Source: a virus (taxonomy: Duplodnaviria; Heunggongvirae; Uroviricota; Caudoviricetes). Taken from it: 5,175 bases of DNA. Below are positions 1 through 5,175 of this stretch, piece after piece. The DNA lies in IMG/VR virus record IMGVR_UViG_2537562091_000002, one strand, 5' to 3'. Position numbers and translations under genes: made by a program. Within the stretch, counting starts at the first letter, position 1. Each line of letters begins with the position of its first letter. The notes beneath the pieces were generated by a model. The model was not told the DNA's origin, did no database searches, and worked only from the letters and a program-made list of their open reading frames with translations.

Positions 1-195
1 CCTGTCATACGCGTAAAACAGCCAGCGCTGGCGCGATTTAGCCCCGACATAGCCCCACTGTTCGTCCATTTCCGCGCAGACGATGACGTCACTGCCCGGC
101 TGTATGCGCGAGGTTACCGACTGCGGCCTGAGTTTTTTAAGTGACGTAAAATCGTGTTGAGGCCAACGCCCATAATGCGGGCTGTTGCCCGGCAT
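1..195 (-). CDS. insB: IS1 InsB, 5' part only (65 codons; 3' end lies beyond the window)
   Basis: Minus-strand ATG at 193-195, then [65 protein letters not shown] to position 1; overlaps insA in another frame as in canonical IS1. Confidence 0.8.
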
Positions 196-389
196 CCAAC
201 GCCATTCATGGCCATATCAATGATTTTCTGGTGCGTACCGGGTTGAGAAGCGGTGTAAGTGAACTGCAGTTGCCATGTTTTACGGCAGTGAGAGCAGAGA
301 TAGCGCTGATGTCCGGCAGTGCTTTTGCCGTTACGCACCACCCCGTCAGTAGCTGAACAGGAGGGACAGCTGATAGAAACAGAAGCCAC
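114..389 (-). CDS. insA: IS1 InsA (transposition regulator / N-terminal part of the InsAB' transposase), GTG start
   Basis: 91-aa translation [40 protein letters not shown]...LKNSGRSR matches recalled IS1 InsA throughout; stop TAA at 114-116. Confidence 0.95.
132..138 (-). other. IS1 A6C slippery run (programmed -1 frameshift site producing InsAB')
   Basis: Minus strand reads TTAAAAAACTC here, at the insA/insB overlap. The role of this motif in IS1 is established knowledge. Confidence 0.7.
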
Positions 390-421
390 TGGAGCACCTC
401 AAAAACACCATCATACACTAA

Positions 422-444
422 ATCAGTAAGTTGGCAGCATCACC
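422..444. repeat. IS1 terminal inverted repeat (insA-proximal end)
   Basis: ATCAGTAAGTTGGCAGCATCACC is the exact reverse complement of the recalled 23-bp IS1 IR. Confidence 0.85.
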
Positions 445-517
445 CAACACCCGATACTTTTTCCTGGCTTCCAGCAACGGGGTTTCTTCCTCCGTTGCAT
501 ATACAGCTCACCTTTTT

Positions 518-811
518 TCACCCACGATTAACCAACAGCCAGATCAGCAGACACGCCACCACCGGCACAGCAAAATCCATCAGGCTTGCCACATCCCAAA
601 CACGCGGATCAAAACCGCCCCACCACGGCATGTTAATCCGCTTGCCATGCCCGAACATTTCAATCCAGCGATATTCTGCCTGGGTGTGTTCACGCGCAAT
701 GAAGAACGTACAACCAGCTATCGCCCCATAAGCCCAGTTTCCGGTAAAAAGACCAACCAGTGTCTGCGCAGCCACAGCACAAAGCGCATGAAGAAAAGGT
801 GTTATATCCAT
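518..811 (-). CDS. Small predicted membrane protein (97 aa), function unknown; last gene of the post-fibre cassette
   Basis: ORF with ATG at 809-811 preceded by AGGAGGAG immediately after the upstream stop. Hydrophobic stretches FLHALCAVAAQTLVGLF, WAYGAIAGCTFFIA and FAVPVVACLLIWLLV flank a charged loop containing WWGGFDPRVWD. No family recognised by eye. Confidence 0.6.
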   Translation of the reverse strand: MDITPFLHALCAVAAQTLVGLFTGNWAYGAIAGCTFFIAREHTQAEYRWIEMFGHGKRINMPWWGGFDPRVWDVASLMDFAVPVVACLLIWLLVNRG

Positions 812-821
812 TACTCCTCCT

Positions 822-1526
822 TTATCTAATATCGCTTCGGGAAGTTAATAACAACTTTAATTCTGACTCAAGTTCATCAACTCTTTCAGTCAGTTTCTGG
901 ATATGGTGAATCAGTGGAACAACCAGACGTTCGTACATTACACCTTCGGCAACAAGGCCATTGCTGGAAATAGCTTCAGGAGCATCATCTTCGTTAGCTG
1001 GTCGCCAGTGTACAAACTGAGGAGCAATTTCTCCTACTTCCTCGGCAATCAATCCGTAGAATCCCCAGTCACGCCTGTCATTTTCGCATTGCGACCTGTA
1101 CCACACAGGGCGCATCCTGAAAATGAGATCGGCGTGCTCTGAATCTATTGTCTCTACTGAATGTTTATAGCGGATAGACGATGTTGACCGCAGCACAGAC
1201 GAAATTGCAGGGTCAGGATTAAGATAAAGGTTTGCCGCCGCTGTAGTCGTGGCCAAATTCCATAAATAAAACGCTTCACGACCTGTCAGTGGATAAAAAT
1301 CTCCGCCATAACGACCACTTTCCAGATCGTTCACTTCCACTTTGTTTTTCAGCTTATTATCAACTTCAGTTTTTGTGTATCTGGAGCTGATATCCTGCTT
1401 TGCACTGGTCATCTCAGTCTGAAGCGTTGATACTTTTCTGCTAATTGATGAAATATCTTCCTTAGCTTTACTGACATCCCCCTTTAGCTTGGTGATATCT
1501 CCTGGAATTACTGTCGATGTAGCCAT
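822..1526 (-). CDS. Standalone coiled-coil protein (234 aa) with a C-terminal peptidase-S74-type intramolecular chaperone domain (tail-fibre/tailspike auto-chaperone type)
   Basis: ATG at 1524-1526, with GAGG overlapping the upstream stop 9 nt before it. Residues about 10-65 show 3-4 spaced hydrophobics (heptad pattern). Residues about 116-234 (SSIRYKHSVETID...RPVWYR...GLIAEEVGEIAPQFV...YERLVVPLIHHIQKL...ELESELKLL) fit the recalled S74 IMC consensus (SDrrlK...lrPvsYrY...GliAQEv...). Confidence 0.8.
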   Translation of the reverse strand: MATSTVIPGDITKLKGDVSKAKEDISSISRKVSTLQTEMTSAKQDISSRYTKTEVDNKLKNKVEVNDLESGRYGGDFYPLTGREAFYLWNLATTTAAANLYLNPDPAISSVLRSTSSIRYKHSVETIDSEHADLIFRMRPVWYRSQCENDRRDWGFYGLIAEEVGEIAPQFVHWRPANEDDAPEAISSNGLVAEGVMYERLVVPLIHHIQKLTERVDELESELKLLLTSRSDIR

Positions 1527-1535
1527 TTTCCTGCC

Positions 1536-1817
1536 TCACATCCAGCCACGAAGTTGATGCTCAACAACAACCGCGTATTTATCGAATATTGACGATTTTT
1601 TTGCATCATTAATGATGCGCACGTTTACAAAATATCCGTCTTCCTTAACACATACCGGCTCGCCATCTTCAGTAAGTTCTCCGGTTTCTTTGTACACGTT
1701 ACCTATCACGTCAATAAGAATATCATCCTGCATCGACTCGTCATCATAATAGCCAGCACTCTTCATAAAGGCCGAAAAGTCGGCCTTGTCTGTGAATTTG
1801 ATAATTAAATCTCGCAT
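1536..1817 (-). CDS. Small acidic hypothetical protein (93 aa), translationally coupled to the fibre gene
   Basis: ATG at 1815-1817 overlaps the fibre stop (minus strand reads TAATG); GGGAGAG lies upstream. Asp/Glu-rich product (MRDLIIKFTDKADFSAFMKSAGYYDDESMQDD...). No similarity to Tfa recognised. Confidence 0.6.
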   Translation of the reverse strand: MRDLIIKFTDKADFSAFMKSAGYYDDESMQDDILIDVIGNVYKETGELTEDGEPVCVKEDGYFVNVRIINDAKKSSIFDKYAVVVEHQLRGWM

Positions 1818-3784
1818 TATATTATCTCTCCCATTTGCGCATCGGTTAATTCTTTATGCCATATTCTAAAATTCCTGATATAACCAAATAAATGACGTAA
1901 GCCGGCTGTAGTCTGGCCTCCAATCCTTATACCTGTAGCACCACTAACACTCTTCCACGTTGTTGATGCTGGTGTTGATAAAACCCCATTGCAGCCAGCC
2001 TGAAACTTGCCATCGCTTTTTATTCTATATACAGCGATAATCTTTCTTGGGTAATTTCCAGGTGGAAATGATATTGGATTACCAAATTGAACATATGGAG
2101 TTCCTACACTACCTGCTGTATTTCTGAATGCAAAAACAAAAGCGTCGTCTTTTGTTTTAAATCCTGTTATATCATAAATTCTAGGCGCGGAATTTGGTGC
2201 CATAGACCAATTTTTATTCACTTCAACCATGCAGGTTAAAGGTTTGCTGGCCATGTTATTTTTACAAGGCAATGTAACAATATCGCTTGCTCGCGTTGAT
2301 GCAACTGTATCGGAAATGATAAAAGATGATGCGCATGAGCCGCCTTCAAATTGTGGTGTCGTAACATCCAAATATTCCCCGCCCAAATAAGTTCCAGGTG
2401 AAACAGGTGGAGCAATTTGGATCTGAGAGCCAACCATATTATCAATAGCTTCAGATTGATATGTAACCTCGAAATAAATCCATCCATTAGATTCTTTCTC
2501 CGCTCGGGCGGTTATTCTTGCAGCCCCTCCTCCCGTTTTCCTAATGGACATATCTGTTATATTAAGATATGCATCTGCCAGATAAAAATATGCGGACCCG
2601 TCATATCTTTCAAATCTTATACGACATTGTATATTAGCACTATCGCTTTTTACACGACATGATGTTGTAACATACTTTTCAGTTCCAGTAACATCGACAC
2701 CTCTTCCTCCTGAAACCGCAGCGATATTCATTGTCGTATTTGTCCCAATTTTTTCGTCCTTTATTTGAAACCGCCCATAAGTAAAGCCAAACTCATCAAC
2801 ACCACTTTCTGTTATAGTTACACTTGTTGTAGCTCCCCACTTAGATGGCGTAAGTGAATTAAGATGATAGTTGGTTCTTTGTCCTTCAATCAGCAAACCT
2901 TCTCGTTCAAATCGCGGTTCGTCAACTTCAGCAACGGTTAATACTCCTGATTTATTAATGTATGTTGCACCTGATGCGCGTTTGAAGCTAACAACCTTAT
3001 CGGATGGCATTTTAATAACATCATCACCTACAGTTATTTGCTTATAACCAGGCGAAAAGCCAGCAAGCATATCCAGTGAATCGTTAAACGGTATCCACAC
3101 ATCGGGAAGCGGCTGCAAAACTTGTTTATACGGCTCCGCAGCCTGGCTTGCATACTCTCTGGCTGCGTCTTCACTTGCTTTTGCAGCCGTCTGGCTTGCA
3201 GCGGATGCTTTCGCCGAGTTAGCCGCCGCAGTCTCGCTCGCCTTTGCGTTGGTTTCACTGGTTTTTGCAGCTTTTTGACTGTTGGCTGATGCAGTGGCAG
3301 AAGAAGCCGCCGCACTTGCAGAACCAGCTGCGGCACTCTCGCTTTGGGCCGCTGCATCCTGACTGTTTTTCGCCGCAGTTTCGCTGGCTTTGGCATTCGT
3401 TTCGCTGGTCTTCGCTGCCGTCTGGCTGGACTTTGCGTTAGTTTCGCTCGTCTTCGCTGCTTTCTGGCTGTTAGCTGCAGCAGTTGCTGATCCAGCTGCT
3501 GAAGTCGCAGAACCGGCTGCCGCACTCTCGCTTTCGGCTGCTGCAGCCTGACTGCTTTTCGCCGCAGTTTCACTGGTTTTGGCATTCGTTTCGCTTGTTT
3601 TCGCTGCCGCCTGGCTGGACTTTGCGTTGGTTTCGCTCGTCTTTGCTGCTGTCTCGCTATTTTTCGCGTTGTTTTCTGATTTTTTAGCTGCTGTCGCGGA
3701 GTTTGCCGATGCAGTCTGCGAGGCCGCTGCCGCCTGTGCGCTGTTAACCTGAATCGGTTCGTGCTGCCTTTGCGGTTTCCTGAT
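1817..3784 (-). CDS. Side tail fibre protein (Stf family), N-terminally truncated remnant. Open frame 3784-1817 with no canonical start; the only start candidate is TTG at 3116-3118. C-terminal LamG/concanavalin-A-like lectin-type domain.
   Basis: Manual translation of the frame continuous with the 1817..3118 ORF stays open up to TGA at 3785-3787. Residues upstream of 3118 read ...AAKTSETNAKASETAAKNSQDAAAQSESAAAGSA..., typical of lambda Stf-type shaft repeats. The C-terminus ...IGGQTTAGLRHLFGYIRNFRIWHKELTDAQMGEII fits the LamG signature (IGG...G.IDEVRIYNRALSAEEI). Confidence 0.8.
   Translation of the reverse strand: MRKPQRQHEPIQVNSAQAAAASQTASANSATAAKKSENNAKNSETAAKTSETNAKSSQAAAKTSETNAKTSETAAKSSQAAAAESESAAAGSATSAAGSATAAANSQKAAKTSETNAKSSQTAAKTSETNAKASETAAKNSQDAAAQSESAAAGSASAAASSATASANSQKAAKTSETNAKASETAAANSAKASAASQTAAKASEDAAREYASQAAEPYKQVLQPLPDVWIPFNDSLDMLAGFSPGYKQITVGDDVIKMPSDKVVSFKRASGATYINKSGVLTVAEVDEPRFEREGLLIEGQRTNYHLNSLTPSKWGATTSVTITESGVDEFGFTYGRFQIKDEKIGTNTTMNIAAVSGGRGVDVTGTEKYVTTSCRVKSDSANIQCRIRFERYDGSAYFYLADAYLNITDMSIRKTGGGAARITARAEKESNGWIYFEVTYQSEAIDNMVGSQIQIAPPVSPGTYLGGEYLDVTTPQFEGGSCASSFIISDTVASTRASDIVTLPCKNNMASKPLTCMVEVNKNWSMAPNSAPRIYDITGFKTKDDAFVFAFRNTAGSVGTPYVQFGNPISFPPGNYPRKIIAVYRIKSDGKFQAGCNGVLSTPASTTWKSVSGATGIRIGGQTTAGLRHLFGYIRNFRIWHKELTDAQMGEII
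3240..3720. repeat. In-frame tandem direct repeat, period 189 bp (63 codons), about 2.5 copies, encoding the fibre shaft low-complexity repeats
   Basis: Near-identical blocks start at 3321 and 3510 (GAACCAGCTGCGGCACTCTCGCTTTGGGCC... vs GAACCGGCTGCCGCACTCTCGCTTTCGGCT...). The sub-motif CTTTGCGTT.GTTTC.CT.GT recurs near 3242, 3431 and 3621. Confidence 0.85.
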
Positions 3785-3791
3785 TCAGCAT
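3744..3791 (-). pseudogene. 15-codon stub (MLNQETAKAARTDSG*), interpreted as the remnant 5' end of the gene after nu1 (terminase large subunit by position)
   Basis: ATG overlaps the nu1 stop as TAATG and is preceded by AGGAGGAG. The frame stops after 15 codons exactly where the Stf-type repeat sequence begins. Too short to identify by sequence; the call rests on position. Confidence 0.35.
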
Positions 3792-4285
3792 TACTCCTCC
3801 TGCTGTAATTCCTCCTCATCATCCGCACCTGCTTCAGTCACCCGCAGGGCTATCTGATCGCGCAGATCATCAATAATGGACTGAACACGGCTCACAGCGG
3901 CAGGCTGCAGACCGCAGTCACGTTCAAGAATATCCGGTAATGTCTCCAGCACCTGCACGACCGCTTTTGCCCAGATGGCAAACTCCCGTCTGACATCACT
4001 GGCCGGAATGAGTTGTGCCGTTTCCTGTTCGAACTTAAGACGCTCACGTTCAGACTGATACCAGGCTTTGCGCTCATGCGCGTCCATTTCGCCTTCTGCA
4101 ACCGGCGGTGGTAATGCCAGAAATGCCGACACAATATCAACCACCCGATAAAGCTTGAGGTTGCTTTCATGCCCCCCTGCAACGGGTAGATTTTGCAGCC
4201 TTGCCGCAGCAGTCTGGCGATGTACACCTGACAATGCCGCCAGTTGACTGATATTCAGCGTCAGATTTTTTAACTCTCGATCCAT
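3791..4285 (-). CDS. Terminase small subunit, lambda Nu1 / Noh family (164 aa)
   Basis: ATG at 4283-4285 with GGAG 7 nt upstream. N-terminal HTH-like segment LNISQLAALSGVHRQTAAARL parallels lambda Nu1 KKQLADIFGASIRTIQNWQ. Sits about 175 bp downstream of a cosN-like site, as in lambda. Confidence 0.85.
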   Translation of the reverse strand: MDRELKNLTLNISQLAALSGVHRQTAAARLQNLPVAGGHESNLKLYRVVDIVSAFLALPPPVAEGEMDAHERKAWYQSERERLKFEQETAQLIPASDVRREFAIWAKAVVQVLETLPDILERDCGLQPAAVSRVQSIIDDLRDQIALRVTEAGADDEEELQQEE

Positions 4286-4500
4286 ACCCGCTCCAGAATG
4301 TTTTAAACATGCATCTTGCGAACAACTTTAGGCAAACGGTGTTAGTGATGAACAAAAAACAATCAGAATCGACACCATAAAAATAAAACAACTGTAATAT
4401 CAATCAATTACAGTAGTGGTGATGACGAATAAAATTTCAAAAACTAGCCTTTTTCCGCGACGCTCCCGCCCCGTGGCAGGGCCCCCCCACTGGGAGGACC
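4286..4500 (-). other. cos region: cosN-like 12-mer (minus strand GGGCGGGAGCGT, plus 4460-4471), cosQ-like sequence on the high-coordinate side, AT-rich cosB-like spacer towards nu1
   Basis: Minus strand reads ...GGGTCCTCCCAGTGGGGGGGCCCTGCCACG GGGCGGGAGCGT CGCGGAAAAAGG... Recalled lambda is ...GGGTCCTTTCCGGTGATCCGACAGGTTACG GGGCGGCGACCT CGCGGGTTTTCGC... The 12-mer matches 8/12, both nick-flanking triplets/pentamers match, and the spacing to GGGTCCT is the same. Confidence 0.55.
4391..4414. repeat. Perfect 8-bp inverted repeat with 8-bp spacer (ACTGTAAT-ATCAATCA-ATTACAGT) inside the cosB-like spacer
   Basis: Read directly from the sequence; function unknown. Confidence 0.5.
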
Positions 4501-4718
4501 CGACAGCCTGACAACCGTGACGAGCATCTGTAACAGAGCTTTACATAATGGCATGGGGATAATTCAGAAGGACATCACAGCATGCCCACACAAATTAGTG
4601 TGAGTGTCCTGTTTCTTACTACGCGCAGGACTGACGAGCATGAGGGGAAAATACGAGAAACGAAATGCCTTATCTTCAGAAATGCAGCCGGCATCCGAAC
4701 TGGACGATATTGTAAATT

Positions 4719-4757
4719 TGATCTTACCCAGCAATAGTGGACACGCGGCTAAGTGAG
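4719..4757. repeat. IS3 left terminal inverted repeat (approximate extent)
   Basis: Element terminus begins with TG at 4719; the roughly 39-bp IR length is recalled, not measured. Confidence 0.6.
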
Positions 4758-4783
4758 TAAACTCTCAGTCAGAGGTGACTCAC

Positions 4784-5083
4784 ATGACAAAAACAGTATC
4801 AACCAGTAAAAAACCCCGTAAACAGCATTCGCCTGAATTTCGCAGTGAAGCCCTGAAGCTTGCTGAACGCATCGGTGTTACTGCCGCAGCCCGTGAACTC
4901 AGCCTGTATGAATCACAGCTCTACAACTGGCGCAGTAAACAGCAAAATCAGCAGACGTCTTCTGAACGTGAACTGGAGATGTCTACCGAGATTGCACGTC
5001 TCAAACGCCAGCTGGCAGAACGGGATGAAGAGCTGGCTATCCTCCAAAAGGCCGCGACATACTTCGCGAAGCGCCTGAAATGA
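4784..5083 (+). CDS. insE: IS3 OrfA (InsE). The ORF track starts at GTG 4775; the canonical ATG is at 4784 with AGAGG upstream.
   Basis: Translation MTKTVSTSKKPRKQHSPEFRSEALKLAERIGVTAAARELSLYESQLYNWRSKQQNQ...ATYFAKRLK matches recalled InsE. The CCAAAAG slippery motif lies at about 5043-5049. Confidence 0.9.
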   Translation: MTKTVSTSKKPRKQHSPEFRSEALKLAERIGVTAAARELSLYESQLYNWRSKQQNQQTSSERELEMSTEIARLKRQLAERDEELAILQKAATYFAKRLK

Positions 5084-5175
5084 AGTATGTCTTTATTGAA
5101 AACATCAGGCTGAGTTCAGCATCAAAGCAATGTGCCGCGTGCTCCGGGTGGCCCGCAGCGGCTGGTATACGTGGT
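5080..5175 (+). CDS. insF: IS3 OrfB (InsF), 5' part only, with an apparent 1-nt deletion in an A-run (possibly inactivating, possibly a homopolymer sequencing error)
   Basis: ATG at 5080 encodes MKYVFIE in frame 1. The conserved continuation HQAEFSIKAMCRVLRVARSGWYTW is encoded from 5103 in a different frame. The window has GAAAAC where the recalled sequence has GAAAAAC. Confidence 0.7.
   Translation, partial: MKYVFIENIRLSSASKQCAACSGWPAAAGIRG

Follow-up and report, generated by a model that had tools for sequence, protein, structure and literature searches.

A decayed Qin-type prophage segment lying between IS1 and IS3 in an Escherichia coli-type draft genome

The stretch of DNA analysed here (5,175 nucleotides, hereafter the window) is a piece of a decayed, Qin-type defective lambda-like prophage that lies between IS1 and IS3 on a contig of an E. 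coli-type draft genome. At this locus a cryptic lambdoid prophage of the Qin type occupies ydfJ; its form is that of E. coli B, C and EC931, not that of K-12. The contig very probably represents the late-gene end of this prophage, decaying in place and shaped by three independent events: an IS3 insertion, a 3693-bp internal deletion and a 980-bp loss beside IS1. The finding is ordinary prophage decay of a known kind.

Placement and gene content of the window

Sequence look-up identified scaffold GL872249.1 of assembly GCA_000191015.1 as 100% identical to the window. Runs of N lie directly outside window position 1 and after 5175 on this scaffold, inside the IS1 and IS3 copies, and the bracketing by IS elements is therefore in part a matter of draft-assembly break points. 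The 4274 bp between the two elements (445-4718) are prophage DNA. Positions 445-3746 share 99.97% identity with the tail-fibre part of Qin in REL606 (E. coli B), and positions 3745-4718 share 99.8-99.9% identity with the small-terminase/cos region of the Qin-type prophage in EC931 and D2. The first-pass annotation had taken this 4.27-kb segment for all that is left of the prophage; its nature as prophage DNA stands, but prophage DNA extends beyond each of the two IS elements. Beyond IS1 the scaffold carries ydfK, ynfT and a truncated ydfJ, which form the left end of Qin. On the far side of IS3 it carries a 68-aa ORF, gnsB, ynfN, cspI, rzpQ, rrrQ, a ydfR homologue and the holin gene essQ. The scaffold gene list thus shows a Qin-type placement, with truncated ydfJ and ynfT-ydfK on one side and gnsB-cspI and the lysis cassette on the other, and the scaffold is collinear with REL606, EC931, D2 and K-12 at the prophage locus. 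Unrelated chromosomal DNA around the IS elements was looked for on this scaffold, and both elements proved to lie inside prophage DNA. Nor has the attachment-site end been removed, one of the possibilities raised earlier, since the ydfJ' end is still present past IS1.

Along the minus strand one meets, in turn, cos, small terminase, terL' (15 codons), 5'-truncated stf', the 93-aa gene, the 234-aa fibre gene, the 97-aa gene and the tfa remnant. The features of the window are:

1..444, minus: left part (444 bp) of an IS1 of the IS1A type, 100% identical to its annotated counterpart in E. coli EC931
445..498, minus: tfa' remnant, a tail-fibre assembly gene cut by IS1 (alignment to the REL606 tfa pseudogene)
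518..811, minus: 97-aa hydrophobic protein, last gene of the tail-fibre module (phrog_1443, 2.7e-58)
822..1526, minus: 234-aa protein of tail-fibre type whose C-terminal domain is an intramolecular chaperone (Peptidase_S74)
1536..1817, minus: 93-aa protein of the tail-fibre module (phrog_1361, 1.3e-44)
1817..3744, minus: stf', side tail fibre without its start and first ~148-150 codons (open frame)
3744..3791, minus: terL', first 15 codons of the large terminase (translation MLNQETAKAARTDSG, then stop)
3791..4285, minus: small terminase subunit, Nu1 analogue (DUF1441 family), 164 aa (Pfam DUF1441, 2.7e-41)
4459..4470 (read 4470-4459), minus: cosN-like cohesive-end site GGGCGGGAGCGT, read in the sequence
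4716..4718, unstranded: ATT, left copy of the 3-bp IS3 target-site duplication (ATT on both sides of IS3)
4719..5175, plus: left 457 bp of IS3, matching the annotated IS3 of EC931, REL606 and D2 save for one 1-base indel

The tail-fibre module accounts for most of the prophage DNA. The stf' product matches a tail-protein profile (phrog_1419) over positions 148-793 of 793 (9e-300) and also matches NF048003. Ala/Ser-rich repeats within it are encoded by two units of 189 bp at 3224-3601 that show a 21-nt sub-period, and its C-terminal domain is spike-fibre/lectin-like; D2 carries an intact stf of 782 aa. The 234-aa protein matches Pfam PF13884 above the cut-off (3.9e-6) as well as the tail-fibre families phrog_3299 and phrog_454. 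The position of the 93-aa gene is conserved in REL606, D2 and the active phage PhiR49_1, and PhiR49_1 also has a 97-aa gene at the equivalent position. The tfa remnant aligns with a pseudogene annotated in REL606 at L001 5944-6054 (window 445 corresponding to L001 6001), and blastn of K-12 tfaQ against the window covered 445-499 at 91%. It was an exact look-up of the 417-aa fibre protein, which carries the M290 variant, that led to the source scaffold. Composition along the window is unremarkable except for a lower G+C content in the fibre-tip genes, and an Rfam scan of the window gave no matches.

Upstream of the fibre genes, the small terminase gene is apparently intact as read; its product matches the terminase small subunit family phrog_141 (7e-74), and phage records annotate the homologue as terminase small subunit. 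The cosN-like site lies 174 bp upstream of terS within a cos region of about 4286-4520, and we take GGGCGGGAGCGT to resemble lambda cosN, GGGCGGCGACCT. Two deposited phage genomes have their termini here, that of Tritos ending at window 4472 and that of cdtI starting at 4471. By sequence and position this is a putative lambda-type cos packaging site, at which cleavage to 12-nt cohesive ends is predicted.

Insertions and deletions at the locus

IS3 begins at 4719, as the first-pass annotation had placed it: its inverted repeat starts there with TGATCTTACCC, and the element matches annotated copies. Its orfA (4784-5083) encodes HTH_Tnp_1 (PF01527), and the overlapping orfB starts at 5080 and runs past the scaffold gap; a complete IS3 would measure 1258 bp, and its transposase is produced through a -1 frameshift out of orfA. 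An A-run at 5099-5102, one base shorter than in the IS3 copies of EC931 and REL606, shifts orfB. This may be a homopolymer sequencing error, and the two homopolymer differences in the window, C7 at 4481-4487 and A4 at 5099-5102, are probably both errors of this type. Should A4 be genuine, the transposase frame of this IS3 copy would be broken. ATT is present on either side of IS3 in EC931 and in the scaffold. The empty site, which reads GTAAATT-CACCTAAAT in D2, was found in 558 complete genomes, the right IS3 junction in at least 16, a count that looks low beside the 28 genomes with IS3 adjoining the region; the insertion is common to several E. coli lineages. IS3 entered by simple transposition, at a point 248 bp beyond cosN, duplicating 3 bp and deleting nothing. 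Lysis genes, previously supposed to have been removed or separated, are indeed separated from the window by IS3, but they persist past it.

Inside the segment, positions 3745/3746 mark a deletion junction with a 2-bp microhomology, TA. The parental ends lie in EC931 at L003 8307 and 12001, and the intervening 3693 bp are missing from the window. Codon 15 of the large terminase is thereby joined to approximately residue 150 of the side tail fibre, and terL' ends in a TAA stop made at the junction. The deletion took out what remained of terL, along with part of J, all of lom and some 150 codons from the start of stf. Its ends share only TA, and illegitimate, microhomology-mediated recombination is its presumed origin. 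The terL'-stf' junction was present in 0 of 5426 complete E. coli genomes, and exact-match scans of genome and metagenome contigs for it gave nothing. This deletion, together with the tfa remnant at 445-498 and the assembly gaps at the window ends, had escaped the first-pass annotation.

The IS1 end at 444, 73 bp past the last cassette gene, was likewise correctly placed: it is fixed by identity to IS1A and by the gap at 445-517 that separates it from the stop of the 97-aa gene. The 23-bp terminal inverted repeat occupies 422-444, and insA (114-389, minus strand) matches Zn_ribbon_InsA and HTH_Tnp_IS1 (PF03811, PF12759). A full IS1 measures 768 bp and also holds insB and a second terminal repeat. 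The remainder of this copy lies past the assembly gap: its second end (IRR, ...GGTAATGACTCC) is at L006 13804 in the scaffold, with an N-gap and overlapping IS1 pieces between the two ends. The search for target-site duplications, fruitful at IS3, gave none at IS1, where the flanks read CTTGAAATC and CAACACCCG with no 8-9-bp repeat. In REL606 the two flanks map to L001 positions 5020 and 6001, with no direct repeat where they meet, and 980 bp of ancestral sequence are missing between them, comprising the pinQ invertase gene and half of the tfa remnant. The missing duplication informs the history of this IS1 copy, not its identity as IS1.

Comparison with IS-free relatives recovered the ancestral pinQ as well as the empty IS3 site. 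In these relatives pinQ sits ~150 bp past the IS1 insertion point, and the 980-bp deletion adjoining IS1 accounts for its absence from the source strain, bearing out the earlier suggestion that an invertase had been lost here. An IS1-promoted adjacent deletion following insertion would explain the loss; recombination between two IS1 copies could be an alternative origin. For both deletions the mechanism is deduced from the end products alone. A second IS1 in the same orientation is present at L006 228-1444, 11.2 kb away, joined to an intQ fragment. The IS1-linked junction was without a match in the 5426 complete E. coli genomes and in exact-match scans of genome and metagenome contigs. An invertible tail-fibre segment of the Gin/Pin/Cin type was also considered and rejected: pinQ is deleted, the window holds no gix-like crossover site (AAACCNNGGTTT-type core) even at one mismatch, and an inverted-repeat search of the window found nothing significant.

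Alternative readings of the arrangement

Two readings would make the IS elements parts of a mobile unit. That IS1 and IS3 together carry the 4.27-kb prophage piece as a composite, a question raised in the first-pass annotation, is suggested by geometry only, in that two IS ends face a short segment. The chance of this is as good as nil: IS1 and IS3 are of distinct families, differ in terminal repeats and transposase, and cannot function as a single composite. The 3-bp duplication, moreover, belongs to IS3 alone, and on the far side of each element the DNA runs collinear with this prophage in relatives. A Tn9-like transposon bounded by the two IS1 copies, mobilising 11.2 kb of prophage DNA with the window and the lysis genes, can draw on their shared orientation. 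It is nevertheless very improbable, as the outer flanks of the pair, ACTGTTTTG and GATTTCAAG, are not a duplication, and the intQ fragment and ydfK keep the order and orientation seen in relatives without these IS1 copies. With native outer flanks on the IS1 pair, the structure therefore arose in place by two deletions. Deletion of the 11.2-kb segment by IS1-IS1 recombination is a likelier future for it than transposition.

Chimeric joining of contigs at repeats might also mimic such an arrangement, since the scaffold is gapped, overlapping IS1 pieces surround a gap and the homopolymer differences are typical of pyrosequencing. However, the IS1, deletion and IS3 junctions all lie inside the contig, away from the gaps, and independent assemblies contain them (the IS1 and IS3 junctions in L008, the deletion and IS3 junctions in L007), which makes an assembly artefact exceedingly improbable. 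As to the source, the IS density had suggested Shigella or an IS-rich E. coli; three IS copies lie within ~14 kb, and the latter alternative fits. A Shigella genome is unlikely, as 6355 bp of flank (ydfJ to dcp plus adjacent prophage-end DNA, mostly chromosomal) are 99.984% identical to E. coli EC931, with one base differing, and for the prophage the identity to E. coli B and EC931 reaches 99.9%. Such identity is closer than expected between Shigella and commensal-type E. coli. We consider E. coli the likely source because of these almost identical flanks.

We therefore retain decay in place of a Qin-type prophage. Particle production from the remnant is ruled out: the large terminase and the head and tail genes are absent, and the fibre lacks its attachment domain. 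The small terminase and cos look intact in sequence, and a related infecting phage could in principle recombine with or recognise them. It seems quite improbable, though, that the cos/terS, fibre-tip genes and lysis cassette between the direct IS1 copies have been kept because they still work. If they have, an infecting lambdoid phage could package from the remnant cos, mobilising adjacent chromosomal DNA, or acquire the fibre module by recombination, which would make the remnant a functional donor for packaging or host range instead of dead DNA.

Past annotation, the finding matters little. The stf and terL fragments should be labelled pseudogenes, and pinQ recorded as missing in the source strain. 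The window is a clean example of a defective lambdoid prophage trimmed by IS insertions and by IS-adjacent and microhomology deletions, and it illustrates that different E. coli lineages lost different pieces of the Qin-type prophage. A literature search on Qin, REL606 and IS3 found no relevant paper. The 3693-bp internal deletion is previously unremarked; the overall phenomenon is already known.

Comparison with known IS1 structures, Qin prophages and active phages

Two aspects of IS1 biology are well known: the deletions that IS1 promotes next to itself, and composite transposons with IS1 ends, of which Tn9 is one. As in the former, IS1 here stands beside missing DNA without a target duplication. 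As in Tn9, the source has two direct IS1 copies, but unlike in Tn9 the IS1-flanked block bears no sign of past movement, its outer flanks being native prophage neighbours.

The closest relatives are the Qin prophages of E. coli B (REL606/BL21), E. coli C, ATCC 8739 and EC931, which share the ydfJ' site, genes that are 99.8-100% identical and the same IS3 insertion site, with ATT on the right side. Compared with the Qin of E. coli B, C and EC931, the source alone has the IS1-linked 980-bp pinQ deletion and the 3693-bp terL'-stf' deletion; REL606 instead lost nohQ-cos through a deletion adjoining IS3.

Qin of K-12 MG1655 (pinQ-tfaQ-stfQ-nohA) occupies the same integration site, shares the flanking genes ynfT, ydfK, gnsB, cspI, rzpQ, rrrQ and essQ, and likewise has a terminase-small-subunit gene fused beside a truncated stf. 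At the DNA level, however, only 55 bp (445-499, the end of tfaQ) are similar, which made K-12 Qin of no use as a reference for the window module. In K-12, nohA, stfQ and the cos region make up another module, and the locus is free of IS elements. By sequence comparison, the window belongs to an alternative late-gene module, which E. coli B, C, EC931 and D2 carry at the Qin site.

Both parts of this module have counterparts in active phages. PhiR49_1 and IdasGreatGrand share the fibre module at ~91% DNA identity, PhiR49_1 with the intact order J-lom-stf-93aa-234aa-97aa, and mEp460, phi458 and vB_EcoS-569R4 have terS/cos regions 85-98% identical to that of the window. In these phages the fibre and terS/cos modules are far apart, flanking the head and tail genes, whereas a deletion has fused them in the window, where stf is without its N-terminal domain and IS elements stand at the flanks.

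Identity and source of the prophage remnant

Megablast against 5426 complete E. coli genomes, with annotation of the best hits, placed the 4274 bp between IS1 and IS3 in the cryptic lambdoid prophage Qin, at ydfJ. Window 445-3746 aligned with the tail-fibre end of the REL606 (E. coli B) Qin at 99.97% identity; for 3745-5175 the counterpart was the small-terminase/cos/IS3 region of the EC931 Qin, at 99.86%. The window itself matched scaffold GL872249.1 of assembly GCA_000191015.1 at 100% identity (L006, the source scaffold, 13070-7896). N-runs start directly outside both window ends, within IS1 and within IS3, showing that the window is a single contig of a draft scaffold. The limits proposed in the first-pass annotation (IS1 to 444, IS3 from 4719) were borne out by sequence and ORF reading, and its 73-bp gap between IS1 and the nearest gene was as stated.

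Features of the window
1-444, minus: left part of IS1, terminal repeat 422-444; 100% identity to an annotated IS1A copy
114-389: insA of IS1; both InsA Pfam domains
445-498, minus: tfa (tail-fibre assembly) remnant
518-811, minus: 97-aa hydrophobic protein, function unassigned; phrog_1443, no Pfam/NCBIfam match
1536-1817, minus: 93-aa gene, function unassigned; phrog_1361, no Pfam/NCBIfam match
minus strand: 234-aa fibre protein; Peptidase_S74 chaperone domain
1817-3744, minus: stf' (side tail fibre) without its first ~148-150 residues; phrog_1419 profile positions 148-793
minus strand: terL', 15 codons of the large terminase
3791-4285, minus: small terminase, DUF1441; phrog_141
4470-4459, minus: cos, reading GGGCGGGAGCGT
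4719-5175: left part of IS3, beginning TGATCTTACCC
4784-5083: orfA of IS3; HTH_Tnp_1 domain

Exact-match scans of species-representative genomes and of a metagenome collection did not detect the window junctions. The same internal junctions were present in two independent assemblies, GCA_045884285.1 (matching window 522-4795) and ENA ERZ27272545 (312-3272 and 3620-4859), confirming that the structure is not a chimera. A single base at position 2201 differs from REL606, giving I290M in a 417-aa fibre protein; exact look-up recovered this variant in three assemblies. Over a 6355-bp flank that begins inside the prophage left end, crosses ydfJ' and reaches dcp, the source scaffold and EC931 differ at one base. 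This comparison with E. coli sequence points to an E. coli source near EC931 and the B/C group and away from Shigella, one of the two backgrounds guessed previously.

C7 at 4481-4487 (vs C6 in EC931) and A4 at 5099-5102 (vs A5 in other IS3 copies), the latter of which would cause a frameshift in orfB of IS3, are probably sequencing errors, given the gapped, 2011-era scaffold. The two other assemblies with the same arrangement (L007 and the metagenome contig L008) each have one single-base gap relative to the window somewhere in the C7 region.

Insertions and deletions at the Qin locus

In the source scaffold, the far IS1 end adjoins coordinate 5020 of the REL606 Qin locus (L001), just past ydfK, and the near end adjoins coordinate 6001. 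The 980 bp missing between these points hold the distal half of the tfa remnant as well as pinQ (L001 5256-5846), in agreement with an earlier guess that an invertase had been lost beside IS1. The 9-mers flanking IS1 are unlike (CTTGAAATC vs CAACACCCG). The loss probably arose by IS1-promoted adjacent deletion or by IS1-IS1 recombination. None of the complete E. coli genomes carried this IS1 junction.

Another IS1 copy, oriented like the first (L006 228-1444), lies ~6.5 kb past the IS3 end of the window. It links the HTH gene region of Qin straight to an intQ integrase fragment on its outer flank; from coordinates, the estimated loss of early genes at this point relative to strain H1827/12 is ~6.8 kb. 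The two copies enclose 11.2 kb, which homologous recombination between them could delete. Their outer flanks show no duplication and are native prophage neighbours, and thus offer no indication that the block has moved as one. Cooperation between IS1 and IS3 was ruled out, since they belong to different families. The DNA directly outside IRR of both IS1 copies starts alike (GATATTTCAAGT and GATTTCAAGT; L006 1445-1456 and 13805-13814), probably by chance or through IS1 target preference.

Both EC931 and the source scaffold have ATT on each side of IS3, and strain D2 retains the uninterrupted target GTAAATT-CACCTAAAT; by sequence, this identifies IS3 as a simple insertion without loss of DNA. 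The empty site was found in 558 complete genomes and the right junction in at least 16, a count below the 28 genomes listed with IS3 adjoining the region that may reflect joining or counting of repeated matches. The left junction as in the window occurred in 5 of the genomes listed. The left neighbour of the same IS3 copy differs in REL606, where it is a J fragment, indicating a separate IS3-adjacent deletion in that strain. Beyond IS3, the source retains a 68-aa ORF, gnsB, ynfN, cspI, rzpQ, rrrQ, a ydfR homologue, the holin gene essQ and an HTH gene. The lysis genes, previously proposed to have been removed or separated, are therefore still present, set apart from cos by 1.26 kb.

The cos region recognized in the first-pass annotation is real, because a lambda-like sequence lies 174 bp upstream of the terminase start and phage genome ends map to it: the last base of the deposited Tritos genome is equivalent to window 4472, and the first base of the cdtI genome falls at 4471. 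The site, ACG-GGGCGGGAGCGT-CGCGG, closely resembles that of lambda, ACG-GGGCGGCGACCT-CGCGG.

An internal deletion had been missed. At 3745/3746 the sequence switches from stf to terL, and 3693 bp are missing compared with the EC931 locus (L003 8308-12000), a stretch that holds the terL remnant, a J fragment, lom and ~150 codons from the 5' end of stf. The parental ends have only TA in common, and the joint forms the TAA stop of the 15-codon terL'. From 3784 to 1817 stf reads as one open frame, but this frame is not that of terL' and has no start codon before 3118; stf of the window is a pseudogene. This junction too was found in none of the complete E. coli genomes.

The tail-fibre module and its relatives

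Independent IS1 insertions have struck the tail-fibre module (window 445-3746) in three or more lineages: at 445 in the source, at 1734-1742 in TUM10008, where a 9-bp duplication is seen, and at 2563 in EC931, accompanied by deletions. Within stf, 3224-3601 consists of two tandem 189-bp units, 81% alike and with a 21-nt sub-period, encoding an Ala/Ser/Thr-rich shaft. L008 is without 347 bases of this repeat region (3273-3619), probably a collapsed repeat. Searches of the window revealed no invertible-segment signals and no RNA families.

The middle of stf (2271-3115, the spike-fibre domain region) shares 88-90% DNA identity with lateral tail fibre genes found in large virulent phages (107-112 kb; for example IrisVonRoten, SPLA5b and PMBT29), suggesting that virulent and temperate phages have exchanged modules. 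It also matches two short unannotated records, Listeria phage LM 4-14-1 and Salmonella phage S.Inf 5-2, which look mislabelled or contaminated.

The earlier observation of an IS-bracketed prophage remnant was confirmed and its interpretation essentially right: at this locus a known prophage has decayed in an ordinary way through known elements. The 97-aa and 93-aa genes are conserved companions of fibre genes in prophages and active phages, and in the active phage PhiR49_1 the order J-lom-stf-93-234-97 is intact. The K-12 reference Qin has only 55 bp in common with the window (445-499, the end of tfaQ). The window thus represents an alternative late-gene module at the same site, which is also present in E. 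coli B, C, EC931, D2 and others.
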